Below, piece by piece: positions 49 through 18,490 of a stretch of 60,693 nt of DNA. Every line of letters begins with the position of its first letter. Position 1 is the first letter of the stretch. A program made the position numbers and the translations under genes. The notes under the pieces are model-generated. The model did no database searches. It was not told the origin of the DNA and saw only the letters and a list, made by a program, of their open reading frames with translations. Source of the stretch: a virus (Duplodnaviria > Heunggongvirae > Uroviricota > Caudoviricetes); the IMG/VR virus record IMGVR_UViG_3300005077_000002, positions 128,001-188,693 of that record; one strand, written 5' to 3'.

Positions 49-3000
49 ACAATACAGCATCTGCACGTCTTATATATTCATCCATGGTGGCAGGACTTCT
101 GCGTATATTGCTGGTGCTAGTACGCTTCATTGGTTTAGGAGGTAATTTGAGATTAATTGGTTTGTCGGCTTTGCCTGGATTAGCCATACTCATTAACTTA
201 TCCAACAGAATAGGACTAGGTGGACGTATGGATACATGAAATCTGTTTTCGCTAGGTGTAGCATCTTCGTCTCTTAATTCAGGAAAATCTTCCGCCTCCC
301 CGCCCCTGCCGACAGGTTCAACTCCCATATTTGGAGACATAAACATTACAGCGCCAAGAGCGAGCAAACTTGTCTTGAGGGGGCCGCGCCAATTGGCATT
401 GATCATCTTCCTGGCGATATCATCTACAGAGTTGCGAATATTATCTACGCCGAACCACTCGCTGATGAGACCGGTTAAATCATTCTTAAAGAATAAAGAC
501 TTGGCAGCGTTGCGGTCGCCAAAAGCAATATCACCTGAATTCATATTGAGATAATCGACCCCGAGTCCAAGAGCTTTCTCAGCACCAAACCTGCGTATAG
601 CTATAGTGGGTGCCATCTCAGGACGCTCATCTATAAGGCTCTTTAACAATGCAGTTACCTTGCCGACACCTTCTTTTGAGAAATAATCTTTGTACTCTCC
701 ATACGGATTGCCAGTACGTATACGTTTGATCTCTGAGCTTGCCCTAAAAAGAATGTTGGCGTGCTTCAGAGCCTGGGTAGCAACATCTTCACCAGTATCA
801 GTTACAGCAGATCCGAAGAAATCTTCCGAAGTAATTGCAGCTTCATTAAGTAACAGGGTCGTATCTTTGCGGGCGAATTCTATATCAGATTCCGTAAGTC
901 GGCCTTTGCGCAGTCTATGGGATAATTCGGAAACATCAGCCAAATACATTTCAATTGGTTTGCTGCCGGTGCCTGATTTCTCCTTCATAATAGATATACG
1001 CTCAGATAACTGATTGTGCCAGAACATTAACTTTTCGTAAGCCGTTGTACGTATATCATTCTCTTCAACTGTTTTCATAAGAAAGTTTAAAGCTGTGCTA
1101 ATCTGATCATGAGATATTTGAGTACGTTTGAATAGTTCGTCAGCCAAATTCTTGTCCAGTTTTAATAGCTCAGACAAATGGGGTAAACCGGCCTGCGGAC
1201 CATACATAGATTCTATCATCTGCATGCTGGCGCCACCGATCTGTCCGGTAAACGCTTTGATAACAATACTCTGCTTTACATCTTGTACCAGGCTCTCGGA
1301 AACTTTCTCAGTCAGATCAGGAATATCCTTAGCTGTATCGAATATTATCGAAGAGGTATCCGCCATCTGAAAAACTTTACGATCACCAATGCTATCCATT
1401 TTATCCATCCGGAAGGGCCATACATCTTTCACCGGATGTTTACGCTCATTCATTCTAGCAACATGATGAAGTTGACGACGATGCACTTCGTCCATTACGC
1501 TAACAGATCGTAAATCTCCAAATATCTTGCGTAGTATCTGGTCACCGTCCAAGTCAGATCTACCGGTATATGCAGCCTGCACAGGGCTCATGTAAATGGA
1601 GGATTTCCTGGCAAGTTTACTGATACCGGCCAGATCCCATATCTCATCATCCAGCACGGACACCTGCCGGATTAAAGATACCATATATGTAAATGAAGGT
1701 TCTTTCAGAGAAAGATCAGGAAGAGTGCTGCGCCCATGTAACCATTCGGATAATCTTGTATTGAAACTTTCGTATTGGGATTTAGTAATAGATCCGGTTT
1801 CTAGTTCAGCAGTTAGGCGCTCAGTAAGAGTGGATTTGATATCTGTTGCTTCAGATTTTGTTATCACACCTTCCAGCAGACCAAATCCCTGGAATGTAAA
1901 ATGTTTCTTGTTTTTCTCGAGTAGCTTCCCGGCTTCCTGGCGCAACTCGTCAATAGTCATTTTAGCGACGCGTGCTGCTTCTTCGGTACCGCCATGCCCC
2001 AATGTAATAACATTGCGTAAGGCTTTTTCACTGACTATTTCAGGATTCTTAAGTACGTTTAGTAAGGCGGCCGGCAATTGCTGAAAGGATGAAGCATGCA
2101 GCTGATATTTATTAAGCCCGCGGAATAGATTACCTTCTTCAGACATGCGCTTAATTTGACCACCAATAAACGTTTTTAAGTAATCTTTTGTCATGTTTTT
2201 TAGAGCATCACGTTCCGTAAGCGCATCATTATATTCTTTCGTTGCAGCAGCGTCTTTAATCATGGCATTACCGGCAGCTACAATAGAGTCATGGAATCTG
2301 GTGTAAGCTTCCATAACGTCAGAGATAGACCGTAAGCTAGCATCTTTGATATACGTGGACATATTGAATTCTTTGAATTCGTGCGGCTTTAACGCCCCTG
2401 TCAACGTGGGTATCGGGATAAATCCGGTTTTAGCTTTATCAAGGCCGGCCTGCTGCAGCTTAATTTTCCATATATGCTTTTGTTCATCGCTTATTGGAGT
2501 GCCACCAGACAGCTCATTTACGATATCATCATAGTAATCAATGGATAAATCCAGCTTGGCCAGCATGTCTAAGCCAGGTGATTTCTTTATGGCTTCTGCA
2601 GAAATACCCATAGACTTTAGTATTTGTTCTCCAGTTTCAACCTTTAACAGATTTAACCTGGCTTCATTTGATTTGAATATGGGAGAGTCTTGAAGCGTAT
2701 CAACAAATATACGCGGGTCTTCAATACCAAATCTGCTGCGTACCTCTTCCGGCTGCAAGTTGTGCTGACGCGCATATTCTTCGACGAGTTCTTCAGTACT
2801 GCGTAAAGCACCGCTGGTACCTAATCTTTTATTTACTTCATTGGCAAGCGTTTCGTTACTAAGGAGCTTGCCGAGCTTCCTGGCATCCTCAAGGGTAAGT
2901 ATTCTGTACTTGTCACGACCGTGAATAGATTTGATGATAGCTTTTTCGTCGGCTTTGTCATAGTCGCTAAGCCACTCAGTGGCTTTAAACAATTCATCAA

Positions 3001-6000
3001 CATTAGATATATCAGATCCTGCATTCGGGCCTCTTTTGAGAAACTCAAGGGATTGCCTCAGCACAGATACTGTATCAGCTATAGGGCGTTCAGCCTTAAC
3101 ATTTATATAGGTAATACCAAGACCTTTGGTGATTATCTTTTCCGCATCCTCCGGAGTTGCTCCAAACTTTACAAGATTCTCTTCGAAGAATGTCGTGAAG
3201 TAAGCACGTTGCGCGAAACCGGCTGGCATTTTGGTTTCTGTTTCAACGACATCCGTTATCTTACGATCTACCAGATCGAGTACATCACCTATTACACTGA
3301 CTGAGCCATAGTCTAACGTAACCATGGATGCAGCCAACCTATTTCCGTATTTAACTATGTCAACATCAAACCAGGCTTCCACGTTTTTATCACCTGCTTT
3401 GAAATCGCCATTATTATAGTATTTACGAACTGACGTCAACAGCCTTGAATAAAAGTTCAGGGAATTGACTGCTTTAGCATGAGCTGAAGAATCTTTTGCT
3501 TGCGTGACATTAGCCTGCAATTCATGAATATGTTTTTCAAGCTGGGTTATGTGACGGCGGAATAATTCATCATAGGATTTCCATGCTTTAGACTTTTCTT
3601 GAGCGTCCGCTAACGCGTCTACTGATTCCTTAAATTTACTTTCCACATATCCAAATGTTAATCCAGCTTCACGCAAAGAATTAAGCATACCTTCTGCAGT
3701 TATACTTTTGTATTCTGCAGAAGTCTTTAGAGCCGACATTATAACTTCTAATCTGTATTTATTGCCAGACGCGAGTTTGTGCGTTACAACTTTAATGTTA
3801 TCCATGCCGAGAAAACCACGTATGCTGCGCCGGAATTCAAGTTCCATTCTCTCGGGATTAGAATTTAATCTGGGGTCCGTATCAATTTTTCGTATGATAC
3901 GGTTCAGCTGCACAGTATAAAACGATCCTATTTCCTTCCGTTTACCGCCGAATCTCATTGGAATAATCAATGCTTCTGTTCCGGAACCGAAACGCAAAGG
4001 TGCTTCAGCAGACTCGTCGGTTACAGATCCGATAAATACTTTGGCTGACTTGGTCAGATCAACACTAACTTTTGTACTGGCAGACACCTGGTTCATGGTG
4101 GCCATTGTTACATTGACCTTGCCAGTTTCCTGATCAAACCATGAATCAATTACAACAGATGGAACTTCAGATTCGTATCGTACCGGTGAGGAGTTAAACA
4201 TTGTACCGGCACGCCACATCGAATCATTCTTTGATATTAGATAATCAGATACTTTAGTGCCGTCAGGCAGTACGGCATCGATACCTTCCTTGGCATAAAA
4301 ATCAAATATCTCTCCGGCTTTATTCATGGAAATGCCGGTGTTAACTGCCGTGTGCTCTTTTGGATTTACACTAATCCTGGATTTAACAGCCCGCTGAATT
4401 GCTTTATGCAAATCATCCTTAACACCCTGGTACGCGGATGTGCCATCGAATATCTGTTCAGCAGTTAGTCCGCGCCACTTTAGAGGCAGGTCTATCTGTA
4501 TTGATTTTACATGCGGGTGGCCGTGGGAGTAAGTTGTTAATCCACTGTACGCGCTATTGAATATACCCTGATCATTATGCGTGCCGATAAAGGATTCCGG
4601 TAACCGCATAATCGGCATGACCCGGGCCGTGTGTAATCCACCTTTTTCCGGATCTGTTATATCCGGAAGATCTTCAGGATTACTTAGCAATTGGCTAAGG
4701 CGGGCAGCCTCTACAAGCTTTTTACCCTGATCAGTCGATAGATTATACCCTGGCATGTACTCTATGCCACGTTTAGCAGCTTCCTGAATAGCAGCTTCGG
4801 ATGGTTGTGTAAAATACCATGACGAGAATGCCTGGTACCGCTGACGCATCATGTTATTGAATAGTCCAAACGGCACAAGGTTCTGCATGTGCAGCATGGA
4901 ACCAATTAGTTTAGCGGCCTGTTGCTGTGAGCTGGAGAACAAGGATATGGCAAACGAATCATCTTCAGGAGTATCTGTTTTATAGAATATGCCGGGCCTC
5001 ATGGAGTCCATTGCACGGAACGGCATCTGCCAGGATGTATTGCCCTTGCTTAGTACATCCACGGCTACCCTGTGCATGGTTTCGTATTTAACCATGTCAC
5101 CGGTAATGGTACCAGATTTCTTTTGCTGCAGCATTAACAGGATGGAATCTATGGCCGTATCGAATGCGCCGTAGTGAGCAATTCCGAGTGCAGAATCCAC
5201 CGTAGCAAGTTTCATCTTACGCGTGTATTCATAAACTCGTTTTAAGTCATCCAGCTTTACATCATATTCCTTAGCTATACTTTCCAGTTCTGACAGAGGC
5301 AAACCCTCGGTAAACAATTTGCCTTGTTTAAGCACTGCTCCGAAAGCAGTTTGGTCTATATTGGTATAGCGTTTAAATGCTATTTCTAGTTTATTGCTGG
5401 CGCTGGGATCATTGATATTGAAAATATGTTCATTGAAGAATGTGTCTATATTATGATCCGTACCTTTAAATGGATCACCATTAAGATACATAGCGGCGCG
5501 CTGCTTTAGCGAAGCATACATAGCATACTGAGGATGTTTTTCATCCTTTAACAGTTCCAGCTGTTTTAGTAATAGCGGAATGTCAGCTTCACCGATATTG
5601 TGACCTACCCAACTTTGCACATTATGCTTGTGCGCCAGATCCAGCATAACGCTAAAAGCATCACCGAAACTGTTATACCGGTATCTGTTATTACCTAGTT
5701 TAGCAGGGGCACCTTTCAGTTCGTGCTCAATAAACTTATCGATATCTGCCGGATTAACACCGGCTTTGAATCTATAGAATTCTCGAATATCTTTGTAAGC
5801 CTGTTTATCCAGTGGATCAATCAGTGTATCCAGGACAGCGACTTCTTCCCAGGTTCTGGTATTTATGACCCGGGCTGAAAAGTTATATATTTTAGTACGC
5901 GGATCAGCAACAACTTTCTGTGAACCAAGCTGCTTGGCAATCATATCCGGATTGGTAAATTCCAAGTCAAACACAAGTACGTTGTAGTTGCCAGTGCCAA

Positions 6001-7639
6001 GCTTCTGCAGGGTTTGCATGGAAGGCACTGCACGTAACATCTTGCGATACTCACGTTCAGTAGCTTTGCCGACAGCCATATTTACATCATGGAACACTGT
6101 GGATAATGATGTGATGAAGTCACGGGGAGTGCCGGATACCGGTGATCCGAACGCGAAGACCTGTTTGTGAATACTGTCTATCAGACCCTGCGAACGACTT
6201 GGGTCACCTTCTTTTTCATATAAATCGCGCATGACATTATCAGACATGGCATACAGACGTTGTGCCGATAATGTCGTTACGTCCATAGTAGACAATGTGC
6301 TCGTATGACCAGTCTGTACCTGCAAAGGTGTTACGACAGGCATGGAGCTGGATCCGCGGGAAACAAAAGCACCGGACTGAATATTAATGGAAGCTCTTAA
6401 CGGATTCTTGCCTGGCACATCGCTGTATAGTTCAAACACGATGGACTTATGCGTGAAGTTGCCTACGTCTTCCCGACGCAGCAGCACACGCATTTCAACC
6501 ATGTCCATATTGGATTTTGTAACCAGGGCGCGCAGCTTATCCTGTGGATCAGCGTAATTAAAGTCAGCGCTTTTATCAGCTTGCTTCTGTGTATTCTTTA
6601 ATTTTGATTGCCATTCCCTTATGGCTTTAACGATGGATTCTGCCTGTCGTTTAGAGCGATCTTTCGGCAAGTTAGTTATACTTACAAGTTCATTCCATTT
6701 GTCACGGACCCTGACGTCATCATGTTCGATGAAACTAACTATTCTATCGCGCAGAGCAATATCGTCTAATCCGGTATTTATCTCGAGAGATGAAAGGCGC
6801 CATGGTTTTTGTCTGGTATTATCCAGCAGAGCAGCTTCAGGCTTTATATTACGTTCAAGATATTTTAAATAATGTCCGGAATCCTTGCGTATGTCATCCA
6901 GATGCTTAACATACGTTTCCCGCATACGCATGGCGGAGTAAGAGTCGCCTTTTGATGCTGCTTCATATAATTTATAATATTCATTCAGTAGCTCAGGAGT
7001 TAGATTTAGAGTTGCTATATCCTGAACTCTTACACCAAATGCTTCCTTGTAGGCCAGGAATGCGGCATACTTTCTGGTTTGTTCGATCTCGCCAAATACG
7101 GATTTCTTGGCGATATCGTTGATATACTTTGCTGAAACAGCCGGAATCGCGCCACCGGTACGTTTCGCATCGAACTGTGCGGACATAGTAGTCTTGATAA
7201 GTTCAGATGTTCGTACCTTAAGCAGATCCTTCATTAAATCTTCATGGAACTTTATCTGGCTGGCTTTAACTACACTTTCACTGCTGGCTGCTTTCCTTTT
7301 CTGCAGAATGTTTTCAGCAATCTTTGATTCTTTTGTCAGATCAGCATGCAGGGATTCAGATACTTTGATCGGCTGTTTTAATCTAGTTGCTACTGATTTT
7401 AGAAAATCAGCTTTCGGCTTGGATCCTGATATGGTTCGCAGATTACGCAGTTTAGCTGCAATAGTATTAAGAAAAGGAATATCATCGGCCTTTTCACCGA
7501 GTAATGTACTTATATCATTGGATACATTACGCAGGGCGTCCAGAACTTCTTTGCGGTATTTGGTTATACCAAGGGCTACAGGCAGTAATGTAACCGCAGA
7601 GATAATGGAATTACTTAGATCTTTTTCCTTATCAGCCAT
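41..7639 (-). CDS. Giant protein (2532 aa): putative single-chain two-barrel (DPBB) RNA polymerase with a DEDDh 3'-5' exonuclease domain; probably virion-associated
   Basis: SIYMSPVQAAYTGRSDLDGDQ resembles RpoC [20 protein letters not shown] (DxDGD at 1541-1555). STKVSVDLTKS...EALIIPMRFGGKRKEIG resembles RpoB GDKMAGRHGNKG...DIVLNPLGVPSRMNIG (~3925-4080). Exonuclease motifs VFDLEF / VGHNIGEADI / AHYGAFDT at ~5150-5980. Confidence 0.65.
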   Translation of the reverse strand: MADKEKDLSNSIISAVTLLPVALGITKYRKEVLDALRNVSNDISTLLGEKADDIPFLNTIAAKLRNLRTISGSKPKADFLKSVATRLKQPIKVSESLHADLTKESKIAENILQKRKAASSESVVKASQIKFHEDLMKDLLKVRTSELIKTTMSAQFDAKRTGGAIPAVSAKYINDIAKKSVFGEIEQTRKYAAFLAYKEAFGVRVQDIATLNLTPELLNEYYKLYEAASKGDSYSAMRMRETYVKHLDDIRKDSGHYLKYLERNIKPEAALLDNTRQKPWRLSSLEINTGLDDIALRDRIVSFIEHDDVRVRDKWNELVSITNLPKDRSKRQAESIVKAIREWQSKLKNTQKQADKSADFNYADPQDKLRALVTKSNMDMVEMRVLLRREDVGNFTHKSIVFELYSDVPGKNPLRASINIQSGAFVSRGSSSMPVVTPLQVQTGHTSTLSTMDVTTLSAQRLYAMSDNVMRDLYEKEGDPSRSQGLIDSIHKQVFAFGSPVSGTPRDFITSLSTVFHDVNMAVGKATEREYRKMLRAVPSMQTLQKLGTGNYNVLVFDLEFTNPDMIAKQLGSQKVVADPRTKIYNFSARVINTRTWEEVAVLDTLIDPLDKQAYKDIREFYRFKAGVNPADIDKFIEHELKGAPAKLGNNRYRYNSFGDAFSVMLDLAHKHNVQSWVGHNIGEADIPLLLKQLELLKDEKHPQYAMYASLKQRAAMYLNGDPFKGTDHNIDTFFNEHIFNINDPSASNKLEIAFKRYTNIDQTAFGAVLKQGKLFTEGLPLSELESIAKEYDVKLDDLKRVYEYTRKMKLATVDSALGIAHYGAFDTAIDSILLMLQQKKSGTITGDMVKYETMHRVAVDVLSKGNTSWQMPFRAMDSMRPGIFYKTDTPEDDSFAISLFSSSQQQAAKLIGSMLHMQNLVPFGLFNNMMRQRYQAFSSWYFTQPSEAAIQEAAKRGIEYMPGYNLSTDQGKKLVEAARLSQLLSNPEDLPDITDPEKGGLHTARVMPIMRLPESFIGTHNDQGIFNSAYSGLTTYSHGHPHVKSIQIDLPLKWRGLTAEQIFDGTSAYQGVKDDLHKAIQRAVKSRISVNPKEHTAVNTGISMNKAGEIFDFYAKEGIDAVLPDGTKVSDYLISKNDSMWRAGTMFNSSPVRYESEVPSVVIDSWFDQETGKVNVTMATMNQVSASTKVSVDLTKSAKVFIGSVTDESAEAPLRFGSGTEALIIPMRFGGKRKEIGSFYTVQLNRIIRKIDTDPRLNSNPERMELEFRRSIRGFLGMDNIKVVTHKLASGNKYRLEVIMSALKTSAEYKSITAEGMLNSLREAGLTFGYVESKFKESVDALADAQEKSKAWKSYDELFRRHITQLEKHIHELQANVTQAKDSSAHAKAVNSLNFYSRLLTSVRKYYNNGDFKAGDKNVEAWFDVDIVKYGNRLAASMVTLDYGSVSVIGDVLDLVDRKITDVVETETKMPAGFAQRAYFTTFFEENLVKFGATPEDAEKIITKGLGITYINVKAERPIADTVSVLRQSLEFLKRGPNAGSDISNVDELFKATEWLSDYDKADEKAIIKSIHGRDKYRILTLEDARKLGKLLSNETLANEVNKRLGTSGALRSTEELVEEYARQHNLQPEEVRSRFGIEDPRIFVDTLQDSPIFKSNEARLNLLKVETGEQILKSMGISAEAIKKSPGLDMLAKLDLSIDYYDDIVNELSGGTPISDEQKHIWKIKLQQAGLDKAKTGFIPIPTLTGALKPHEFKEFNMSTYIKDASLRSISDVMEAYTRFHDSIVAAGNAMIKDAAATKEYNDALTERDALKNMTKDYLKTFIGGQIKRMSEEGNLFRGLNKYQLHASSFQQLPAALLNVLKNPEIVSEKALRNVITLGHGGTEEAARVAKMTIDELRQEAGKLLEKNKKHFTFQGFGLLEGVITKSEATDIKSTLTERLTAELETGSITKSQYESFNTRLSEWLHGRSTLPDLSLKEPSFTYMVSLIRQVSVLDDEIWDLAGISKLARKSSIYMSPVQAAYTGRSDLDGDQILRKIFGDLRSVSVMDEVHRRQLHHVARMNERKHPVKDVWPFRMDKMDSIGDRKVFQMADTSSIIFDTAKDIPDLTEKVSESLVQDVKQSIVIKAFTGQIGGASMQMIESMYGPQAGLPHLSELLKLDKNLADELFKRTQISHDQISTALNFLMKTVEENDIRTTAYEKLMFWHNQLSERISIMKEKSGTGSKPIEMYLADVSELSHRLRKGRLTESDIEFARKDTTLLLNEAAITSEDFFGSAVTDTGEDVATQALKHANILFRASSEIKRIRTGNPYGEYKDYFSKEGVGKVTALLKSLIDERPEMAPTIAIRRFGAEKALGLGVDYLNMNSGDIAFGDRNAAKSLFFKNDLTGLISEWFGVDNIRNSVDDIARKMINANWRGPLKTSLLALGAVMFMSPNMGVEPVGRGGEAEDFPELRDEDATPSENRFHVSIRPPSPILLDKLMSMANPGKADKPINLKLPPKPMKRTSTSNIRRSPATMDEYIRRADAVLLT

Positions 7640-7641: not shown

Positions 7642-10600
7642 TTAATCTCTTAATCCTAGTTCGTTGATGTAATCAACGTTTGACCTATCCCTGGATACTT
7701 TTAAGTTAAGATTAATGGTATTGCTGCCACCTGGTATGTTGCGCACAACCACAGAAGCGTTGCCTAATCCAAAGTTACTCATTGCGCTCTGCAGCAATTC
7801 CTGAATATCATCCTGATCCAGATCTAGTAACTGCGGCTCTTCACTCTCTCCATTTATGTCTATAGGCTCTATATCAAATGGAGAATTACGTATTCTGTCT
7901 TCCTGCTGCCGCCAGCCTAATCCAAAATCATGTGCATCGTGTCCGTATGCCTGAATGGTTTTAAGCTGAACATCTTCCATCTTGGTAGCCGGGTGCATAA
8001 GCTGGCTGGCCATGGATGGATGCTGATACTTATGAAAGTAATCTTTCATGTCTTCAGCATACTTAGGTATGTCATTGCGGTCGCCCCATGTCGTTTCTAA
8101 TATGGCGCGCATCTGGGGATCAACCATTTTTAGGATGTTGGCTCTTTCCTCTTCGTCCGTGGTCTTTGCAAATGGGAACAAATATGGTTTGTCCCAGGCT
8201 GGCAATCCTTTTATGGACAGACCTAACATAGAATTTTCAATTTCATTTTCGACTTCTTTGTCATTTACCTGACCCTGGATAAGAGATTCAGCAACATCAA
8301 TACCCTGCCATGGTGATCCGAATCCTTTGTCAGCACCTAAACCCATCGCGCTAGGATTATGCATATGCCGTGAGTCTGCACTTATTGGACTCTCTTCACC
8401 TTTTAGCATAGTCAGAGCGACAGGGGAGCCCGCCAACATGGCTGTAAGCCAGGTCGGAAATACATCTGTACCAAGTACAGCAGATTGAGTATTAACTTCC
8501 TGGGCTTTAATCTGAGATACAGCAGTGCCTGCTACAGCATCAACAGTATCATCTATTTTATTAGTAAAGAAATTGTTATCTATCATCCGGCTTAGCGGAT
8601 CATCCTTAAGCGTGGTGCCATGTGTTTTAAAATATTCTTCTTTGCGTCTGGTTACTTCCCGGACAGCTCTATCATACAGGTCTTTATTAATATCCTTGGT
8701 GTTCATCCAGTTGTAGGCCCACAGCTCATCATCTGCACTGGCTAACTTATTTTTAGCCGCATTCTCTATATCGATCCATCGTTTAGCATTATTTTCAAGT
8801 TGAGCTAACTGCTCATCTATTGTAGTATTGACAACAGGATCTTGTTCTATTTTATTTACAAATCTTGCTTTACCTGATAACGTAGATTCAGTATTAGCAG
8901 AAAAACTACGTCTAACTGCAAGCATTTTGCTTATGTCTTTTTCTCTTCTTACTATATCATTTTCAAGTAATCTTACATATGCATTGTACCCTATTCTGTT
9001 TTGCACTATATTCTTTTTCCATAAAACAGATGCTCGCATAAGGGAATTAATAAGCTGATCATTCAGCTGATTATCGAGTTTTGGAAATGTTTTATTAACA
9101 AGCCATGATAATGCTTCTTTATTACTATTAAGATACCATGATCCTTGTTTATACTTTTCGGACGTATATGCAAATGCTTCTGATACTACTGATGTTATAT
9201 CATCAGTATCGTATCCTTTTGACTTTAAAAACTGCTTTCTTAAGTAATACTTGATTGGAGATTTTCTAAGGGCTGTATGCAATTCAAAAGAAATATAAGG
9301 TAGATCATGCTCAACTCTGGTTAGCATGTCATGAGCTCTTTCATGCATAATTATACTACGAGTTGATATTGCTTGTGATTTAGTAGCAATTAAATTCAAT
9401 ACTTTTTGTGGAATATTAGCAGCATATATTATATCTTTAGCATATTTTACGTCTTTATTGTGATCTATGTATGATAAGTATTCTGGATAATCCATTAACC
9501 GTTTTCCTAATGATACACCAACAGCTCCTGATCTACTAACAGCTGCTCTTCTCACCCCTAGTAAACCTCTCCACGGAGAACCAAATCCCTTGTCGGGACC
9601 AAGGTTCTTGGCGGCTGGATTATGAAAATGTCTGATAGCTGATGATAATGCACCAGTTTCAGCAGAAATAACTGTAGTATTATATGTGGATAGTCTATCC
9701 AGGTTACCGGCAGATTCTAATTTACTTATATCATCAGATGTACGTAGTACTTTAGATAGGTAAGCTTCCTTAGTTTTTGTTCCATGAATTCTTACCCGCA
9801 TTTTATCGGTCCAGCCAGAGAATTCTCTTTTTTGTTTGAACTTAGCGACACGATATAATTGACGGTCTCTATCGGAAACTATCTGCTGATATCCAGTAGT
9901 ACGTAGAACTTTATTCTTATAATCTTTAATTGCTCGATTAGTTATTATTATATTATTTGCTTTGTCCACAACTACTTGATTTATAGTAAGATCAGTACTA
10001 CGAAAGAAATCTTGCAGACTGTGCTCAACTCCTATATCAGCCGCTGTCTTGTTACGTATTAAATAATCTTTTGAATCAATTAGTGCTTGTTCTACAGAAC
10101 TACCAGTTTGTGGTATAACAAGAAAATCAATATCTTTTACATAACTGTCATCTAGTCCGGAGTATTTAGCTCGAGCTGCACCACCCTTAATAAATATTTT
10201 ATGACCGGTACTTTGTTCAAATTCAGTCATGAACTTTGATGCATTATTTATCTCTGCAGATGGATCTAATGCTATTCTTGAACCTCTTGGCACCCAATCC
10301 GGATTTACTTTATCCCTATCATTAATTACAGGAATGGTGTATTTATGCCCTTTTACTTTTAGAACACGTCTACCCTGCAAATCCAACATTATCTTGGAAC
10401 CAGGTATGGATGATAGCAGTTCCGAGTATCTGGCAGACAATTCTATATTATTTAGTGTACTAAAATAGTCTCCCTTAAATACTTTTTTGTTTCTCGATAC
10501 TGCTATTCTATACAATCTCTCTTCATCATCAACATACTTTGAATATTTTGAAAGCATTCGCTCTGATAGTCTTGCAAGTTTGTTACCCTTTGGCATATGA

Positions 10601-13600
10601 TACAGTTGATTAACATTTACTGCTTTTATGAATCCTCCACCAGCAGTAACAAACATATCTTGATTTTTGTCATATTTAAGATGCTGTCCTAATGTGGATG
10701 CGTTTTTAACATCATATTCCACATCATTTATAGAGAATAATCCTTTAACTTTATGTGTGTGTGCACCATATCTAACTGCATCCGGGTTTGACGCAGCATA
10801 AACGCCACCTGTTTTCCAAGCATCTCTTTTGCCTGGCATAATAACATTTTGTATTCTGTAAGGACTAGCATGCACCAATTCCATGTGTCTAAGATCACTG
10901 TAGTGTAAAGCACCTATTTCATTATACATTTGTTTGTATTTGTTAGATGCTGCTATCTGATCCATAGTCTTTTCAGCTTTGTCGACGAAATACTTTCTGG
11001 ATCCAACAGTATTAAATATAGCATCAGTGTATCTAAAGTCTGCTCCAATAGGTACTTTAGTTATAGGCTGAATAGCAGTTCCAAGCAATCTAGATAATTT
11101 AGCTGATAACGATTTAGATTGTTGAGCTTTAAAGTATAACGATCTACCAATATTAAATGAAATATCTTTTGCGATACCTTGCCATGGAGATCCAAAACCC
11201 ATGTCAGAACCAATTCCTTGAACATACGGAGTATGCTTTTTACGAGACTCAGACCGCATGCCTTCATCAGCCATGGCTGATAGAACCCAGCCCTGGGTAG
11301 TCTCTGACATCTGACGCATGTATTTCTGGTCGCGGGTGGCCAGGTACAGCATGTGAGCATTATAGTATTTTGCCCTGTCAAAGTATTCAGCTAGTTCACT
11401 TTCCTCTTCGAATTTATCCGGAATGTATTTCGTGCCGGTAATGTTTCTGTATGCGCCATGCATGAATCCATACAAAGCGCCTAAAGGCATCGTCAGAGAA
11501 CCTAGTACAGGTCCGCCAAGTAATGATCCGCCAAGACCAAAACTTATGGCACCCTGGACCGGATCAGTTACTGATGTAAGCCCGCGGCTATATGGTTCGA
11601 TCCAATGATCAATTGGTTTATTCCATAGTTTGAATTCCCGGCCGTACAGAACATTGCGTTCATACTGTTCATCAGGAGAGTACAAACCAAACAGTTTTGT
11701 GTGTAATGGACTTTTTAAGTGGGTAAACTTTTCCCATAGCGAACCAGCAACACGTTCCGCGGCGCCATACTCAGCAGCAGCTTTTATGTTTTCATTCAAT
11801 GAGTAGTTTTCATACTCAACATCAGGAGACATGATCTTAGACCACTTGAATCTGTACGGATGCATCTCCTGCTTCCACATCATAGCATTATGCTGGCGCT
11901 GCAGTTTGTCGTACTGTGCCTGTTCCTCAACATCCAGTATACCAAGCTCGTACTGTTTATCAAGTACGCGCATGTTATCTTTGAATTCCTGGCTAAACGG
12001 ATCAGCATTAAGAAGAACCCGGGCACGGTCAAGATTGCTGTAACCTTCAGCGGCTGTGCCATAACCCTGCTGCAGATATTTTGCTGCAAGGCTTCTGGCT
12101 TCATGCAATCTGTTTATACTTTCCTGATATAATGCCGGATCGTATTTAACATTGAATGATCTAATCTGGGTAGGATCATCACGATTTACATAGAGCAGTG
12201 TGCCACTTTTTGAATTAAGGATATGTGAATACAGATTTAACTGAACTTGGTGTTCGTACTTGGGTTTGAACAGTTTCTTAAAACCTTCGCCGCCAATAGT
12301 CTTTATTTCTACGGGGTGTTCACCACGCATATCCCGTATAAGAACGTCCACATAACCTTTAATGTTTTCATAAGGATCTACAACAAGGGCCTCTGACTGA
12401 ACCGAATCGCTGTATCGTGTCAGCATTTCCTGCACGATTCTGTGAGATCTGGTACCTTCCTCAAGAATCTCTTCGGAGCGTTCATCCATGTCCTGGCGCA
12501 AACCGATCATATTCAAAGCCTGGGTATACGCGTCTTTGCCTAAAGATGAAGGGCCGGATGGGAAAGTAAGTTTTACGTCATTTACACTTTCATAGCCTTC
12601 GCCAGGTAGCAGCAGCTCGCCTTGAGGTATTTTAGTATTATGAGTCAGAGCACCAGCAACGCAGAATGAGTCGTCCGAATCTACTTCAAAGCCGTATACA
12701 AATCCTTCGTAGTGCTGGGTTGTTATGGATTCTATTTTGATTTGCGCAAAGTCATAACAGGAATTATTCCTATCGTAACCAAAGGTAATAAAATCTTTTT
12801 CCGCTTCAGAAGAGAAATGGCTAACAGGAGGATTGTACCCGCACAATTGCCCGAGATACGTTGCATTAACATTTGTGTAGTATACACTGCTGCCATTGAT
12901 TCTTCCTGGAATTGCATGCTGCAGCATATATGACCATGCCTGGTAAGCAAGGTATTCATTAGGCATATCGAACCATAGATTATCGTGCTGATCCATTCTC
13001 GAGAACGGAATAAGAAACTGCAGGAATATAGGCATTGACACACCGAAGAATGCAGCAGGCAACCCGTCATTAATAAGTGATTTTACAAAGTTTTGGATGC
13101 CTTGCACACCATAATGACCACGCGCTGTTGGACTGACATTAAGTAATTCTTTTGTCAGATTTACAGCTTCTTTAGCATCAGCGCCCTTCAGCGTGAGCGC
13201 ATTACTATTTAAATCAACTGATTTTAACAGCAGACCACATAACCTGGAAAACTTGCCGGTTATATTTACACCGTTAATCATGGTCGTTCTGGAATCTTCT
13301 TCGACTAATGTTACCCAGCTGGGTACTTTTATTCGCAGTAACGGATAAAGAATTCTGTCTCTATGTGTTAACTCTTCAGCTTTGATCCACTGTTTATTGA
13401 TGTAGAAAGGGTGTTCACTTGTAACTTTTATGGGCCACGGTATACCTTTAAGCTTTATAACATAAATGTCTTCGTTTACGAATCTAGGAGCTACACGCCG
13501 CACAGGATAGAATCTACCATGCATGGTACGAATCAGATCACCTGGAACAACGTCACTTGCCGGTTTTAAACTGCCGGCTACTTCAATATAGGTATCAGGA

Positions 13601-16600
13601 GTTACGCAGTACGGATCGCCTGCCTTAAATTTGTCAGGCATCCAACCTGGCATTTTATTAGATAGCGGATTTACTTTTTCATAATTGTATCTGGGTCTCG
13701 GGAATAAACGACGGAAACCTTCGCTGAGCATGAATGTATCACCGAGATTGGAATCCCACATGGACCTTGTAAAAGAATCCATTTCACTGGCAGCAGCGAA
13801 AGCAGGTTGGTCACTGTACGGAGCATCCCCGCCCCACAACAGATTACTACCAACGAAACCGATAATACCGGCAGGTTCAGTAAACTGACGGTATAACATT
13901 TCCGATAATATCTGTCGTGTATCAAACGGAGATGCAACTTCCCCGTGCGTGTATTCCCCTATGGCACTTGGTATAGCCGCGCTGAACTGGTTATCTGATC
14001 CTTCAAGTCCAAGATACGGAGCGCCGGAATAAATACCTCCGTAACCCCACAGATTGTCCTGGCCGTCAGACACACCACCCAACAGAGCTTCAGTTGCGGA
14101 TTCTTCGTGCATAGCACTTACTTTACCAAACGGATGTATAAGATTGTACGCACGGCCAATGGTAGGTCCAAGTATGGCTCCGAGTAACGGTACTTCCGAG
14201 AATGGAACATCCGGTACAACGTACGGACGACGTTCTGCTTGTTTGTTGGTAAGATACTGTGGATTGATTATGTCACCCACACTGAAATCAATAAATGGCA
14301 AATCTTTGAATATAAGTTCTTCGAATTTGCTGCCATACAGAACATCCGTAGACTTATACTGCGATTTCAGTTTAGTGTACCATGATGGCACCCAGGCCTG
14401 GATGCGGCCGCCTTCAATCGGAGTACTACCGAGAGACCAACCGGCGCCCTTCCTGTAAGGAATGCTTTCTTTACCTGAATAGATATCTTTTAATTCATCA
14501 TAGCTTTTTGTAATGTCAGTAACAAAAGGTGCCAGCGGTGGCAGGATAGCTAAAGACGACAGCGGCGTGTCATCCAGCTGAGTCTGGGTGTAGCGGTTAA
14601 TGGCGCCACCTACTAAAGCACCCGGCAGACCACCTAGGAATAATCCGGTAACGGCTCCTGGCAGTATACTGGTTGATTTAGGCATCAAGCCTTCCATGTA
14701 TTGAGCCATATCCGTAATACCGGCTATGTCAAATACTTTGGCTGATGCCAGCCTGGCATTGACTAGCTGGTCAGCGGCTGCAACTGTAATTCCTTCATCT
14801 AGTGCAGTACCGCTGAACATTGGATTGACATCAAAGAACGTATCGGCTGATCTATAGGCAAATGCAGCAGCTGAAGCGTAAGCAAAGCGCTTACCCCACA
14901 ATCCGAGTACACTATTATCCCAATTTAATTTGTTATCTTTAAGTTTAGGCAGGAACTCACTGTACTTCTGTCTACTCCAGCCTAATCCAATAAAGTCTAA
15001 TGCTGTACCAAACGTATCGTAAATGTAGTAACCGCCAAGCTCAAGCAGCGTCTTAGGATCTTTTTCCACAGCGATATAAGGATCCCTGTGGGCAACCATT
15101 GATGCTTCCCGGAACATTTGTTCACGGTATCTATTGGGTGTACTGTACTTTACGAACGAACCTATCTCTTTTGAAAATCTCTCAAGAGTACCGGCCTCAT
15201 CAGCTTCTTTAAGTACGCTTAGCAGTCCATTAAACACTTCCGTTGGATCATTACCACTATCCGGAGAAACGACATCTCGTACGCGCATGTACTGAGAACC
15301 AACCCGGAACTTCTCACTGACGAAAAGCATTTCAGTGAGAGCGCGGTCGCGACGATTGGTCGTTGAGCCTATTACATTATTAACGACATTGACAACACGT
15401 TTAGCCAGAGTGTTGCCGGCATCCTTAATTGTTAATTCATTAACGGCGCCCTGCCCTGCTGCGGACGACATTCTGTAGTTGGCAATAAATCTTACTAGCT
15501 TATCACTTATCTGTTCACCAACCGGATTATAGAATTCGTTGTCACTGGCGTTTGCAAGATGCTTGTACAGCTGTCTGATTTCAGTGGCACCACGGGTGGT
15601 GTCAATGTACTGTGAGCCCTGTCTAAGAATAAGACCTACAGCTTCATTTGCTGTTTTAGGATTCGAAAGAATATTGTCTACACCGAGTTTACGTATTTCG
15701 GCAAACAGTTCAGCATCTACATCAGGTGAAGTTGTTTTTGCAGTAAGTGGTTTTAAAAACTCGTTGAATACTTCGCGTCTATTAATAACATGACTGGTTT
15801 GTTTATTCAGTGCGTAAAATGCTGAATCAACTGTTTCCAAATAGGATAATAGCTTATCAGTGGATTCTTTAGTGGTGTATTTCTTTATGTCAAAGCCGTA
15901 TTCCTGCAGAAAACGATTACTGTTTTTATTAAACAACCGTTTCATACTGGCGTTGCCGGTATAAACTTTTAGCAGGTCAATAGCGCTAACATCACTAAGC
16001 GAATCACCTCCAAACAAATCCAGCTTTTCATACAGGAATTTGCGGGCTTTGCCAAGCGGACCAGTACCAAATTCACGAACAGTATCAGGAACAAAACCAG
16101 GATCAATAAGTAGTTTGTGGGCCTGCGCCATAACATTACGCAATTTGCTATGGTGCATGGCTGGTAACAATGCCAGAGTAGATCTGGTGATTGGCTTATA
16201 TTCGAATATGCCGCTGCCATTGTCTCGCAGAATATACATCGTGGAGCCGCGTTTACTTTGATCACGCAAGTAAACACCGACACCTCTAAGGGCATTTTCT
16301 CTATTTTCTTTGGGCTGATAAGATTCGAACTTAACAAACTTCGGTACTGATTCTTTGTATTGTGGCAGCAGCGCATTACCAGCAATGATCTGATTATCAC
16401 CAGATACTATAAGATCAGGAGCCTGACTGCGTAATAGATTAAGCTGGAATATGGCCGGCACATCAAAACGTCTGCCAAAAGATAGAGGTTTGGTGGCCCA
16501 GTGCAATGCCCTGCGCATCATTGCACCTGGAGTTACTTCAGATAAGTCTACAAGTTTGCGGCGCTTTACATCAAAGTATACATCTTTTTTATATAATAAA

Positions 16601-17955
16601 TCTAATCTGGAACGACGCGCATTGAGCAGTTTTTCATCAGGACGTAAACCCCATATATATCTGAATGCTGCTTTCTGCGAATCACCTGTAATGGTTTCAT
16701 TTCTGTAAGCTTTACTGGCACCGGTCAGCATGGTAATATGCTGTTTGTACAGGGCAGCATCTACTTCTTTGATATGCTTTAATCTGGCCGGCACCAGTCC
16801 AAGAGCTTTTGTAAGCAGACGTCTTTTAGGTGCAACCGTTACTGATCTGTATAATCCTTCCTGTAACTCGCTGCCTACTTTATTATCCGCATTAGTATTG
16901 CGCAGTAATTCGTAGAATTCTGCATTATCTATTGTGCCACGATCGTCAAACAGGAACTGTTTATGTACAGTAGATACTCCAAACTTATTGGAAATACTGC
17001 CGCTCTGAGCTTTCCACTCTTTCTTGAATATATAAAGTCTCTCGAGAGCCGTGTTAATCGGATTCTTATTAACTCTGTATTTGAATAGTTTGGTATTATC
17101 TTTTACAAGAAATAGTCCATGACCGGACTGGCCGCCAGTCTGGTTATAGGCGTATCTGTAAGCATTGCCAACAGCATGCAGTTTAGTATCAGATTTCTTG
17201 ATAAGATTGTTGGCATTGGCCAGCAGATCCGTAATGAATTCTCCGGATGCTGTGCCTTCAAGGGATCTATTAAGTTTGTTGGAAACAATATTACGCAGAG
17301 CCGGAGCGGCTGTAGTAATTCCGCGAAACGGCAAATCAATGGCAACAAAGGACGGTAACCACTTGGCAAAGTTTACAGCATGCCCGGGTAGGTTCCACCA
17401 GTCCGGATGCCACTCTTTTTGTCTCTCAATACTGTCCCTGTTAAGAATGCCGACAGCCTGCTCACCGACATAGAACAATGGAGCGGTTACGGCCAGCTCC
17501 TTGAGATATAAAGCTCCGGCACTCTTAAGCAGATCTGTTTTCTCACTGCCTGGCATACTCCAGAAACGTTTTAGCATTGCGGTGCTGCGCAGACCGCCGC
17601 TCATCCTGGAAGAGAATTTACGGGCTTCTAAACTTGTTTCATCCAAGTATCTGGACATCTCGGCAAAAGAGCCAAGTAGGCCATCAGATGATTTGAGCGG
17701 GGATTTACGTATTAATTCGCTGACGCTGGTTATGTCTTTGGTAACGGCTGTATCACGCAGTACCTTAAGAGTACCAGTTACTTTGGGGGAATCTTTGAGC
17801 AGGGTTACCAGACGTTTGCTGGCCATGGACATGGCGCCCATACCAACCTTGGTATATAAGCCCCATGCTGCAAAGGATACCGCTAGTCCACCTACTGTTT
17901 TAAGTAGGGAACTACTGGTTTCCTGCTGTTCCATTTGATTCTCGAATTCAGCCAT
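7642..17955 (-). CDS. Giant tape-measure-position / ejected polyvalent protein (3437 aa) with intein, PD-(D/E)xK nuclease, nucleotidyltransferase, ART-like and HExxH modules
   Basis: Directly follows two tail-assembly-chaperone-like genes. Has Gly-rich hydrophobic segments (PGAVTGLFLGGLPGALVGG, GAISFGLGGSLLGGPVLG) and the embedded motifs listed separately. Confidence 0.65.
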   Translation of the reverse strand: MAEFENQMEQQETSSSLLKTVGGLAVSFAAWGLYTKVGMGAMSMASKRLVTLLKDSPKVTGTLKVLRDTAVTKDITSVSELIRKSPLKSSDGLLGSFAEMSRYLDETSLEARKFSSRMSGGLRSTAMLKRFWSMPGSEKTDLLKSAGALYLKELAVTAPLFYVGEQAVGILNRDSIERQKEWHPDWWNLPGHAVNFAKWLPSFVAIDLPFRGITTAAPALRNIVSNKLNRSLEGTASGEFITDLLANANNLIKKSDTKLHAVGNAYRYAYNQTGGQSGHGLFLVKDNTKLFKYRVNKNPINTALERLYIFKKEWKAQSGSISNKFGVSTVHKQFLFDDRGTIDNAEFYELLRNTNADNKVGSELQEGLYRSVTVAPKRRLLTKALGLVPARLKHIKEVDAALYKQHITMLTGASKAYRNETITGDSQKAAFRYIWGLRPDEKLLNARRSRLDLLYKKDVYFDVKRRKLVDLSEVTPGAMMRRALHWATKPLSFGRRFDVPAIFQLNLLRSQAPDLIVSGDNQIIAGNALLPQYKESVPKFVKFESYQPKENRENALRGVGVYLRDQSKRGSTMYILRDNGSGIFEYKPITRSTLALLPAMHHSKLRNVMAQAHKLLIDPGFVPDTVREFGTGPLGKARKFLYEKLDLFGGDSLSDVSAIDLLKVYTGNASMKRLFNKNSNRFLQEYGFDIKKYTTKESTDKLLSYLETVDSAFYALNKQTSHVINRREVFNEFLKPLTAKTTSPDVDAELFAEIRKLGVDNILSNPKTANEAVGLILRQGSQYIDTTRGATEIRQLYKHLANASDNEFYNPVGEQISDKLVRFIANYRMSSAAGQGAVNELTIKDAGNTLAKRVVNVVNNVIGSTTNRRDRALTEMLFVSEKFRVGSQYMRVRDVVSPDSGNDPTEVFNGLLSVLKEADEAGTLERFSKEIGSFVKYSTPNRYREQMFREASMVAHRDPYIAVEKDPKTLLELGGYYIYDTFGTALDFIGLGWSRQKYSEFLPKLKDNKLNWDNSVLGLWGKRFAYASAAAFAYRSADTFFDVNPMFSGTALDEGITVAAADQLVNARLASAKVFDIAGITDMAQYMEGLMPKSTSILPGAVTGLFLGGLPGALVGGAINRYTQTQLDDTPLSSLAILPPLAPFVTDITKSYDELKDIYSGKESIPYRKGAGWSLGSTPIEGGRIQAWVPSWYTKLKSQYKSTDVLYGSKFEELIFKDLPFIDFSVGDIINPQYLTNKQAERRPYVVPDVPFSEVPLLGAILGPTIGRAYNLIHPFGKVSAMHEESATEALLGGVSDGQDNLWGYGGIYSGAPYLGLEGSDNQFSAAIPSAIGEYTHGEVASPFDTRQILSEMLYRQFTEPAGIIGFVGSNLLWGGDAPYSDQPAFAAASEMDSFTRSMWDSNLGDTFMLSEGFRRLFPRPRYNYEKVNPLSNKMPGWMPDKFKAGDPYCVTPDTYIEVAGSLKPASDVVPGDLIRTMHGRFYPVRRVAPRFVNEDIYVIKLKGIPWPIKVTSEHPFYINKQWIKAEELTHRDRILYPLLRIKVPSWVTLVEEDSRTTMINGVNITGKFSRLCGLLLKSVDLNSNALTLKGADAKEAVNLTKELLNVSPTARGHYGVQGIQNFVKSLINDGLPAAFFGVSMPIFLQFLIPFSRMDQHDNLWFDMPNEYLAYQAWSYMLQHAIPGRINGSSVYYTNVNATYLGQLCGYNPPVSHFSSEAEKDFITFGYDRNNSCYDFAQIKIESITTQHYEGFVYGFEVDSDDSFCVAGALTHNTKIPQGELLLPGEGYESVNDVKLTFPSGPSSLGKDAYTQALNMIGLRQDMDERSEEILEEGTRSHRIVQEMLTRYSDSVQSEALVVDPYENIKGYVDVLIRDMRGEHPVEIKTIGGEGFKKLFKPKYEHQVQLNLYSHILNSKSGTLLYVNRDDPTQIRSFNVKYDPALYQESINRLHEARSLAAKYLQQGYGTAAEGYSNLDRARVLLNADPFSQEFKDNMRVLDKQYELGILDVEEQAQYDKLQRQHNAMMWKQEMHPYRFKWSKIMSPDVEYENYSLNENIKAAAEYGAAERVAGSLWEKFTHLKSPLHTKLFGLYSPDEQYERNVLYGREFKLWNKPIDHWIEPYSRGLTSVTDPVQGAISFGLGGSLLGGPVLGSLTMPLGALYGFMHGAYRNITGTKYIPDKFEEESELAEYFDRAKYYNAHMLYLATRDQKYMRQMSETTQGWVLSAMADEGMRSESRKKHTPYVQGIGSDMGFGSPWQGIAKDISFNIGRSLYFKAQQSKSLSAKLSRLLGTAIQPITKVPIGADFRYTDAIFNTVGSRKYFVDKAEKTMDQIAASNKYKQMYNEIGALHYSDLRHMELVHASPYRIQNVIMPGKRDAWKTGGVYAASNPDAVRYGAHTHKVKGLFSINDVEYDVKNASTLGQHLKYDKNQDMFVTAGGGFIKAVNVNQLYHMPKGNKLARLSERMLSKYSKYVDDEERLYRIAVSRNKKVFKGDYFSTLNNIELSARYSELLSSIPGSKIMLDLQGRRVLKVKGHKYTIPVINDRDKVNPDWVPRGSRIALDPSAEINNASKFMTEFEQSTGHKIFIKGGAARAKYSGLDDSYVKDIDFLVIPQTGSSVEQALIDSKDYLIRNKTAADIGVEHSLQDFFRSTDLTINQVVVDKANNIIITNRAIKDYKNKVLRTTGYQQIVSDRDRQLYRVAKFKQKREFSGWTDKMRVRIHGTKTKEAYLSKVLRTSDDISKLESAGNLDRLSTYNTTVISAETGALSSAIRHFHNPAAKNLGPDKGFGSPWRGLLGVRRAAVSRSGAVGVSLGKRLMDYPEYLSYIDHNKDVKYAKDIIYAANIPQKVLNLIATKSQAISTRSIIMHERAHDMLTRVEHDLPYISFELHTALRKSPIKYYLRKQFLKSKGYDTDDITSVVSEAFAYTSEKYKQGSWYLNSNKEALSWLVNKTFPKLDNQLNDQLINSLMRASVLWKKNIVQNRIGYNAYVRLLENDIVRREKDISKMLAVRRSFSANTESTLSGKARFVNKIEQDPVVNTTIDEQLAQLENNAKRWIDIENAAKNKLASADDELWAYNWMNTKDINKDLYDRAVREVTRRKEEYFKTHGTTLKDDPLSRMIDNNFFTNKIDDTVDAVAGTAVSQIKAQEVNTQSAVLGTDVFPTWLTAMLAGSPVALTMLKGEESPISADSRHMHNPSAMGLGADKGFGSPWQGIDVAESLIQGQVNDKEVENEIENSMLGLSIKGLPAWDKPYLFPFAKTTDEEERANILKMVDPQMRAILETTWGDRNDIPKYAEDMKDYFHKYQHPSMASQLMHPATKMEDVQLKTIQAYGHDAHDFGLGWRQQEDRIRNSPFDIEPIDINGESEEPQLLDLDQDDIQELLQSAMSNFGLGNASVVVRNIPGGSNTINLNLKVSRDRSNVDYINELGLRD
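9835..10200 (-). other. Class II CCA-adding / poly(A) polymerase-like nucleotidyltransferase head domain within the 3437-aa protein
   Basis: IKGGAARAK...KDIDF...STDLTINQ...DYKNKVLR...LYRVAKF parallels the canonical VGGAVRD...DIDI...RRDFTINA...DL..R...LRAVRF; coordinates approximate. Confidence 0.75.
12130..12460 (-). other. PD-(D/E)xK (RecB/Cas4-like) nuclease domain within the 3437-aa protein
   Basis: GTRSH...E...KGYVD...VEIKT...HQVQLNLY motif order; coordinates approximate. Confidence 0.8.
12637..13608 (-). mobile_element. Intein (324 aa) in the 3437-aa protein, with a degenerate LAGLIDADG-like middle
   Basis: Starts CVTPDTYIEV, has block B KVTSEHPF and blocks F/G VYGFEVDSDDSFCVAGALTHN, with Thr at +1. 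Exteins join as GDPY|TKIP. Confidence 0.9.
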
Positions 17956-18490
17956 TTAACTTGGATCGTTCTTTACTTAATCTAGCTAATAATTGTTTGG
18001 CGGGATCTGTTTCTTTGTGCTTATTAAATAAGCTCGTGCCAGTCATCTTTTCTACAAGAGCTGCTATCTGCAGCAGCCTTTCCATAGGTGTATCCAGTAA
18101 TTTAAGTATATCGGTATTCGGAAAGTTCTTTACTATGGCCGCGGCCAGGGCGTAAGAAGAATTAGATGATACAATACCATCAGCCCACTTATCATAGTAT
18201 TCCATATCAAAAGATCCATCCTTCAAGATCGGAATACTTGAATTCATGATAGCTTCGTGCAACACGTACATAGAGCCGACTAATTGAAAATCCAGTTGCT
18301 TCGGTTCAATAACTGCCAATGCAACCGTGGCTTCAACCCAGTCTTTTGTTTTCTGTGAGGATTCGAGTTCGGATAACACAGTTATCTCATTCGGAGTCAG
18401 GCTGCGATAATAAATGTCCGTGTCTTCAACACGTATAAGTGTGATTGGTCCGTATTTGGCTTTGAGTGTAAGTAATTCTAATTCAGTCAA
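17948..18490 (-). CDS. Tail assembly chaperone-like protein 2 (TTG start)
   Basis: LKAKYGPI...IYYRSLT is paralogous to the upstream 121-aa ORF; lies immediately before the giant tape-measure-like gene. Confidence 0.6.
   Translation of the reverse strand: MTELELLTLKAKYGPITLIRVEDTDIYYRSLTPNEITVLSELESSQKTKDWVEATVALAVIEPKQLDFQLVGSMYVLHEAIMNSSIPILKDGSFDMEYYDKWADGIVSSNSSYALAAAIVKNFPNTDILKLLDTPMERLLQIAALVEKMTGTSLFNKHKETDPAKQLLARLSKERSKLNG

Follow-up and report, generated by a model that had tools for sequence, protein, structure and literature searches.

A polymorphic slot bracketed by a repeated peptide in a giant tail-locus protein of a 189-kb myophage, with putative enzyme cassettes as its cargo

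The window analysed here is a stretch of 60,693 nt from the IMG/VR virus record IMGVR_UViG_3300005077_000002 (positions 128,001 to 188,693), forming the terminal part of that 188,693-base record, whose two ends overlap each other. The source virus is a 189-kb myophage, and Pfam and PHROG searches identified genes for a terminase, portal, capsid and tail sheath in the window. Our subject is the 3437-aa protein P0001, encoded on the minus strand at positions 7642-17955 and called the scaffold protein in the following, which carries three in-frame copies of the peptide motif GxDxGFGSPWxG at residues 2249, 2786 and 3207. Copy 1 (11176-11244) consists of a basic, NP-type leader and the core GSDMGFGSPWQG at 11176-11211; copy 2 (9565-9633) reads RHFHNP...GPDKGFGSPWRG with its core at 9565-9600, and copy 3 (8302-8370) reads RHMHNP...GADKGFGSPWQG with its core at 8302-8337, the RHxHNP leaders of the latter two being located at 9616-9633 and 8353-8370. 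A preliminary description of this DNA had placed the three copies, the RHxHNP leaders and an HExxH motif correctly, and all of them lie in this one reading frame. When P0001 was shuffled, any 6-mer occurred three times in 0 of 3000 shuffles. All features of the scaffold gene given below are on the minus strand.

The two intervals between the copies encode enzyme-like modules. The first holds an ADP-ribosyltransferase (ART)-like domain (cassette 1a, 10621-10893; LxH[AT]S ... GVYA ... RYG), followed by the head of a candidate class II (CCA/poly(A)-polymerase-like) nucleotidyltransferase with GGxxR...DxD kept (cassette 1b, 9736-10218). The second holds an HExxH...E domain, a putative zincin-like peptidase (cassette 2a, 9001-9564; HERAH at 9331-9345), followed by ~200 residues predicted to be helical in a low-confidence model (cassette 2b, 8386-9000). 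The CCA-like nucleotidyltransferase is the only cassette with profile support: it matched phrog_1614 (E 1.3e-6), phrog_24229 (E 1e-5) and the NCBIfam CCA tRNA nucleotidyltransferase (E 5e-6, at 25.6 bits far short of the cut-off, 469), with Ppx-GppA of Pfam as a rival match at E 6e-5. Its catalytic head is present as GGAAR...DID and GGTAR...DLD, DxD being kept in both cassettes of this kind. The selection motifs of class II CCA-adding enzymes, RRD and EDxxR, are absent from these cassettes, which have RSTD/HSTD and DxD[RK]QLYR in their place; cassette 1b probably resembles a class II nucleotidyltransferase in its working and is not classed as a CCA enzyme. The ART-like calls come from motifs and from language-model leads below 0.9 (0.81 and 0.88 for the two types found), with no HMM match. 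Cassette 1a itself, with the ESM Atlas lead ART-PolyVal (0.81, recognition below the mark), had no match in Pfam, PHROG, NCBIfam or the PDB, and its candidate H and Y are kept in two of two cassettes. Cassette 2a was called as a putative peptidase from its motif; it resembles the cassette of the homologue L003 (31% identity, E 8e-8), and HExxH and the downstream Glu are invariant in all three such cassettes. About 165 residues of cassette 2b are missing from L003 and from P0004.

To place these intervals in a family context, homologues were taken from protein searches, contig scans and a search with a profile of the C-terminal region against 1.84 billion representatives, which returned 788 at E<=0.001, the best 150 of which were used; neither the pre-motif scaffold nor cassette 1 brought up a relative when scanned against viral contigs. 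Among the 173 proteins examined, a few of them near-duplicates, 154 had both anchors flanking the site, and 19 with the downstream anchor alone were excluded. The motif was absent from the site in 118 proteins, present once in 16, twice in 18 and three times in 2. The gap between the anchors was at most 34 residues in 92 of the motif-less proteins and 35-175 in the other 26, where it appears by eye to be a lineage-specific helical extension; it measured 63-124 residues in the single-copy proteins, and all 17 gaps longer than 175 residues were enclosed by at least two motif copies. In a FastTree phylogeny of 136 rows, which omits P0052 and rows with short anchors, the 36 motif carriers group in one clade (support 99). 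A quick IQ-TREE analysis of 28 rows agrees (Shimodaira-Hasegawa-like approximate likelihood ratio test 100 for a clade of 17), and filled and empty members are intermixed within the carrier clade. The clearest pair is formed by the sisters L007, with an ART-like cassette, and P0020, which is empty: they are 58% identical on both sides of the site and differ by the cassette and one motif copy, the single copy of P0020 aligning to both copies of L007. This demonstrates one polymorphic slot just ahead of the C-terminal domain, bracketed by a clade-specific peptide. The swappable cargo envisaged in the preliminary description is borne out, as both its identity and its number vary between homologues at one site and cassettes are always bracketed by the motif; neither an invariant inter-motif sequence nor a cargo-bearing relative lacking the motif was encountered among the homologues. 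The 20 multi-copy proteins provide 22 intervals, 10 of which are domain-sized and 12 are spacers of 52-115 residues, net basic in 9 of the 10 counted.

Identical kinds of cassettes recur in other order and number between homologues. Cassettes 1a and 1b together match the second cassette of P0003 (33% identity, E 5e-53), so that this pair, the first cassette of P0001, takes second place in P0003, and the HExxH cassette, second in P0001, is the sole one in L003 and P0004. P0003 has an extra 258-aa cassette of no assigned kind, and P0127 a 279-aa cassette that looks kinase-like by eye, a reading for which Pfam and PHROGs gave no match. Yet another ART-like domain fills the slot of L007, L011 and L025; it has R-G and [FY]T[ST]-type strands with a variable last catalytic position, and it fails to align with the type of cassette 1a (hhalign 0.4%). 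In total there are at least five cassette types, two of them without assignment. The L007-type domain is also found outside the slot: on five other viral contigs, of which three are near-identical, it makes up the C-terminal part of 215-257-aa genes adjoining a terminase and a P22-like portal gene, with domain borders that match those of the slot cassettes. Because the L007 cassette is closer to these free genes (28-33%) than to those of L011 and L025 (24-25%), separate captures are suggested. The terminase-side genes at L063:2524-3294, L064:5707-6351 and L067:5003-5746, from phages with P22-like portals, combine a conserved N-terminal part with the ART-like domain, and L063 has additional open reading frames of similar size in tandem; the N-terminal part, which had no Pfam match, presumably resembles the PT-TG pre-toxin domain. 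Searches of the PDB with the ART-like sets found nothing, and neither the two cassettes nor the neighbouring gene had a tblastn match among 50,697 annotated phages.

Structure prediction contributed little to these assignments. AlphaFold2 reached a predicted local distance difference test score (pLDDT) of 31 for cassette 1 as a single sequence and a mean of 40 for residues 2767-3437 with three sequences, where the HExxH region came out all-helical; no zincin fold was among the 50 rows shown when this low-confidence model (pLDDT 40) was searched with Foldseek against the PDB and in viral and wider searches. The enzyme-like character claimed for the modules has thus gained profile support for the nucleotidyltransferase and no fold confirmed by structure. 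One explanation that avoids injected effectors altogether is that the slot is a tolerant loop, whose inserts are decorations acting outside the cytoplasm or in assembly, or are partly inactive. The lack of fold support would fit it, as would the spacer-only proteins, which are the commonest two-copy state, the nucleotidyltransferase without RRD and EDxxR, and the variable last catalytic position of the L007-type domain. However, catalytic-type residues are kept in cassettes that have diverged (DxD in 2/2, HExxH...E in 3/3), NAD- and NTP-using enzymes need cytoplasmic substrates, and one cassette has its relatives in head-packaging clusters, a context tied to injected ARTs in the accessible text of Iyer et al. 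(PMC9503650). We consider the tolerant loop unlikely.

The base composition of the intervals distinguishes them from their surroundings. Their GC content is 0.346 and 0.355, compared with a scaffold mean of 0.44, and at third codon positions (GC3) it is 0.219 and 0.245 versus 0.405 for the scaffold (Fisher p 4e-16 and 5e-10), where windows of 400 codons range from 0.34 to 0.44. The hand counts that had first pointed to AT-rich cassettes (16/60 versus 33/60 GC) were accurate and the contrast is upheld by GC3, but the 33/60 segment is an unusually GC-rich comparator. As the GC3 of cassettes lies near that of the scaffold in 4 of 5 relatives with DNA, the foreign composition seen here is no general trait but reflects recent import into this genome.

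The motif is fuller than first noted, approximately [RK]xx[NH]NPxxxG[ILV]GxDxGFGSPWxG. Across 59 copies the core is G[FH]xS[P][WY]xG, with DxG ahead of it and the basic NP leader in the subclade of the window; this invariance is partly set by the search pattern, and a profile made from the copies returned identical copy numbers. The statement that the peptide is better conserved than the DNA was confirmed at four-fold degenerate sites, which agree in 20 of 61 comparisons within genomes (8 pairs) and 365 of 1099 between genomes, 33% each, the near-duplicates L024 and L016 being excluded. With the synonymous sites of the copies saturated, the copies are old and kept by selection on the peptide, not on the DNA. 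The preliminary description had offered a cleavage or release signal or a recombination anchor as the role of the motif, and this result bears on the latter, according to which the copies are DNA scars or anchors of cassette exchange and one copy alone functions as protein. The flanks speak for exchange: a right flank varies with the segment downstream of it (mean BLOSUM62 of 0.74 in like pairs and -0.74 in unlike ones), consistent with crossovers within the motif, and a left flank varies only weakly with the upstream segment (0.67 versus 0.53); the right flank of copy 2, for instance, resembles that of the copy preceding the HExxH cassette in L003. Some copies have also drifted (GFGSKYKG, GFGSSWKG, GHQSPW). 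A pure DNA anchor is nevertheless disfavoured, because the synonymous sites are saturated and equally alike within and between genomes, and because both copies keep the core in lineages in which the cargo has diverged to 57% (L011/L025) or 26-31% (the HExxH set); we regard it as very improbable.

In its distribution the motif is tied to the scaffold. No copy was found in any other open reading frame of this genome, and a general capsid-targeting or packaging tag was rejected on this ground; stretches found with the strict DNA pattern belonged to the scaffold in all 7 viral cases, in 7 of the 25 from metagenomes and in none of the 11 from prokaryote genomes, the remainder having no scaffold match. 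P0052 is otherwise free of inserts and has a lone copy inside its C-terminal domain (residues about 705-735), off the usual slot; therefore the motif module is able to change place. An exact but leaderless GxDxGFGSPWxG occurs in a GC-rich, bacterial-looking membrane-protein reading frame (L021:3033-4979, plus strand; profile E 0.01) and was deemed a chance occurrence. Asn-Pro autocleavage is known from FlhB/EscU and was considered for the motif; it is a weak candidate, with N of the NP leader in 22 of 28 copies and the leader absent from the second subclade. An 'FGS domain' was dropped as an identity for the motif, being an unrelated lectin fold. A literature search with the motif string, with subscription journals and supplements outside its coverage, had one match, an unrelated defensin study.

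The scaffold protein is distantly homologous to gp145 of Bacillus phage 0305phi8-36 (tblastn, residues 1-2245, 25% identity over 28% of the region, E 7e-9) and also matched genes in four more annotated phages, six records altogether. gp145 is annotated as a virion protein and was detected by mass spectrometry, and the gene order in 0305phi8-36 runs from two tail chaperones through gp145 and gp146 (proposed tape measure) to gp147 (hub). In the window, two small genes at 17948-18948 on the minus strand precede the scaffold gene in the position of the tail chaperones gp143/gp144; a 121-aa reading frame among them matched the 0305phi8-36 locus (L001) at E 3e-13. The scaffold gene thus sits directly behind the chaperone pair, downstream of the terminase, portal, capsid and sheath genes and upstream of a hub-like gene, in a late virion setting. 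That the protein stands in tape-measure position, as first described, is correct with respect to position, and it lies in tape-measure territory. Its identity as tape measure is unproven, because the published role in 0305phi8-36 belongs to the neighbour gp146, to which it was given chiefly from tail length in a work that also describes the fast divergence of tape measure proteins (Hardies et al., PMC2147016, in its accessible part); no tape measure family was among the Pfam and PHROG rows shown for the scaffold.

We tentatively propose, at somewhat less than an even chance, that the gp145-like scaffold is likely virion-borne and injected, and that the bracketing peptide, 23-40 residues long, marks proteolytic cuts by which each cassette is freed. 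The cut-site role of the peptide is inferred, as are packaging and injection. A single copy would first have served to sever the body of the protein from its C-terminal domain, and its duplication would have produced a releasable compartment that was filled repeatedly with conflict-type enzymes: two ART-like kinds, a CCA-like nucleotidyltransferase, an HExxH peptidase and a kinase-like domain. Cassettes would pass between phages through recombination in the 54-67% identical motif DNA, and, once free, the enzymes may join the putative virion RNA polymerase of the next gene in the opening minutes of infection and act on host proteins, RNA or NAD-based defences. We favour release because each domain-sized insert is bracketed on two sides and because processing into units has been proposed for polyvalent proteins (Iyer et al. 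2017, PMC5512222, accessible text). The HExxH domain cannot be the general processing protease, since it is optional cargo.

Several observations weigh against release. Most two-copy relatives enclose no enzyme, a fact missed at first: 12 of the 20 multi-copy proteins hold spacers alone, with nothing recognisable as an enzyme. A cut at the motif of P0052 would split its C-terminal domain, and there is no copy between the ART-like domain and the nucleotidyltransferase of cassette 1, nor between the HExxH domain and its tail. AlphaFold2 and Foldseek confirmed no enzyme fold in the low-confidence models, the GC3 of the cassettes is no more than 0.04 off that of the scaffold in 4 of 5 relatives, and the placement in the virion, likely as it is, was transferred from the 25%-identical gp145. 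Finally, a ClpP-family gene, which stands alone at 53871-54467 in the window, is present in 6 of the 7 records with the motif but also in 1 of the 8 without it. That one record is the sole complete metagenomic one among the motif-less, six of the eight being fragments or incomplete, and the association is weak and confounded by descent. A complex prediction for three ClpP-like chains and the motif peptide scored 0.00, which is evidence neither way.

The main rival is docking without cutting, in which each copy binds a multimeric partner (the baseplate hub, tube lumen, a chaperone or the neighbouring polymerase) and two copies clamp an insert-tolerant loop, the cargo being delivered within the whole chain. 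It would explain why the motif is kept in 16 cargo-less single-copy proteins and round the short basic spacers of 12 two-copy proteins, and why it was relocated alone to a second site in P0052. Linear binding motifs typically show two aromatic anchors among glycines, as this one does, and the motif is predicted as coil in the low-confidence model. Yet copies on both sides of every domain-sized insert (17/17) go beyond the need of a single tether, and the motif occurs in no other reading frame of the genome and is thus no general packaging tag. We judge docking to be a serious possibility, if on the unlikely side. A stronger version of release, to which we give rather little probability, would make the peptide an autonomous and mobile tag for processing, ~40 residues long, that inserts itself, duplicates and turns the domains between its copies into released, tail-delivered cargo. 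If so, the tail locus of the clade would amount to a programmable magazine of several effectors, beside an undescribed family of virion RNA polymerases, and the tag could be used for loading chosen proteins into phage particles destined for bacteria.

The constant part of the scaffold has further features of its own. An intein (residues 1450-1773, 12637-13608; C...HN|T) matched Pfam Intein_splicing at E 1.7e-6, below the cut-off. Found by pattern, an intein beside the nuclease occurs in 23 of 30 motif-bearing and 0 of 71 motif-less long proteins, a weak association, confounded by descent. The scaffold family is a hot spot for inteins, the homologues P0005, P0008, L011 and L025 being affected too; P0008 has up to five intein-type ends, and in L011 one falls within HDFG, a motif of the C-terminal domain. 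The nuclease is a Cas4/PD-(D/E)XK-like domain (12085-12552; phrog_1706, E 1e-19) that is also present in P0003, P0004, P0006 and P0052 and, by alignment, in motif-less relatives, and it may be an injected DNA-processing enzyme. About 90 residues ahead of the slot, a hydropathy scan revealed a Gly-rich hydrophobic segment (residues about 2133-2165, 11461-11559), with a matching segment near the C-terminal third in all eight proteins scanned; it is a candidate membrane hairpin. The C-terminal domain at 7642-8220 (WD[RK]P ... HDFGxGW), identified by profile search, is common to the whole family.

Only 3 bp downstream of the scaffold gene begins the next gene (41-7639, minus strand), whose 2532-aa product is a candidate virion two-barrel RNA polymerase. 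The call relies on conservation of DxDGD (DLDGD at 1541-1555), which is invariant in 10 of 10 aligned orthologues; in the R-x-P upstream of it, P is invariant and R is found in most rows, with K in the window. Pfam and PHROG gave no match, and PDB profiles returned RNA polymerases only at a non-significant E of 1.8-2.2. A stretch near residues 560-840 looks like a DEDD-type exonuclease by eye. A second DxDGD protein of 877 aa, probably a non-virion RNA polymerase, is encoded outside the window (G000:C1 8258-10891, plus strand); we take it to be YonO-like, also by analogy to gp99 of 0305phi8-36, and the phage may possess two polymerases as P23-45 does. Elsewhere in the window are a block of ~8 genes between the tube-like genes and the chaperones (18995-27922, minus strand; products include 1311 and 475 aa), whose large genes had no family match and no counterpart in the loci compared, a prohead protease gene (40328-41923), a terminase large subunit with an intein (45153-47477), and HTH/PAS regulators with a ParA gene (56009-59768), which may indicate a plasmid-like prophage state.

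Cutting and domain shuffling have been proposed for polyvalent virion proteins and are hard to test, as domain borders are usually unmarked; the motif clade offers explicit borders, natural empty and filled sister pairs and a short, mutable peptide. Slot position by itself flags new early-acting effector families, and, should the peptide prove to be a release tag, it would be a candidate part for protein delivery into bacteria by phage particles.

Among known systems, phage polyvalent proteins come closest. As the accessible text of PMC5512222 describes them, these are large late-gene products joining unrelated enzymes (ART, HExxH+Glu metallopeptidase, nucleotidyltransferase), proposed to be processed into units and to act early in infection; that text names no delimiter peptide and has 0 matches to 'FGS' or 'tape measure', whereas here all variable cargo sits in one slot between dedicated peptide copies. 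P0001 combines at least two disparate domains, a mark of the class (Cas4-like nuclease, nucleotidyltransferase, HExxH...E and, as a lead only, ART-like), and no LPD or MuF model of Pfam was matched, with E limits of 0.01 for the protein as a whole and 5 for its segments. The protein works like a polyvalent protein and shares two testable features of the class, from which it departs in having one slot, a delimiter that is repeated and a scaffold encoded in the tail locus. Virion-borne ARTs, peptidases and CCA enzymes have been described without such a delimiter in the accessible parts of PMC5512222, PMC7824862 and PMC9503650, and no description of the slot and delimiter architecture was found in the literature covered, to which subscription journals and supplements (with a possible family listing) did not belong. 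S8-PTS was rejected as a match, its signal being a single dibasic site (PMC9424270, accessible text).

Gp145 of 0305phi8-36 and CDS0026 of Moorella phage MTATph1 share the homologous scaffold and C-terminal domain, and the gene order of sheath, tubes, chaperones, two giant genes and hub, but their site has no motif or enzyme insert; moreover gp146 of 0305phi8-36 (annotated tape measure) has no DxDGD though in the matching gene slot, unlike the gene described here and nine relatives. In polymorphic toxins (Rhs, contact-dependent inhibition) a conserved motif likewise marks the border where effector domains swap. There, a single motif precedes a C-terminal toxin that is paired with an immunity gene; here, the cargo lies ahead of a conserved domain, with a motif copy on either side of it, and there is no room for an immunity gene because the next gene begins so closely downstream. 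MuF-fused or head-packaged ARTs and T4 Alt similarly attach ART-type effectors to myovirus virion proteins, but as C-terminal head-protein fusions or free internal proteins (PMC9503650, accessible text), in contrast to the internal, tandem, bracketed cassettes of this tail-locus protein. Thermus phage P23-45 gp96, a tape measure fused to a virion RNA polymerase, resembles the present system in having enzymes in a giant tail-locus protein delivered at infection, together with a DFDGD-type motif, a metallopeptidase and membrane segments (bioRxiv 10.1101/2022.12.01.518664, accessible text); it carries one fixed enzyme in a siphovirus, whereas in our myophage the polymerase candidate is a separate neighbour and the cargo is polymorphic.

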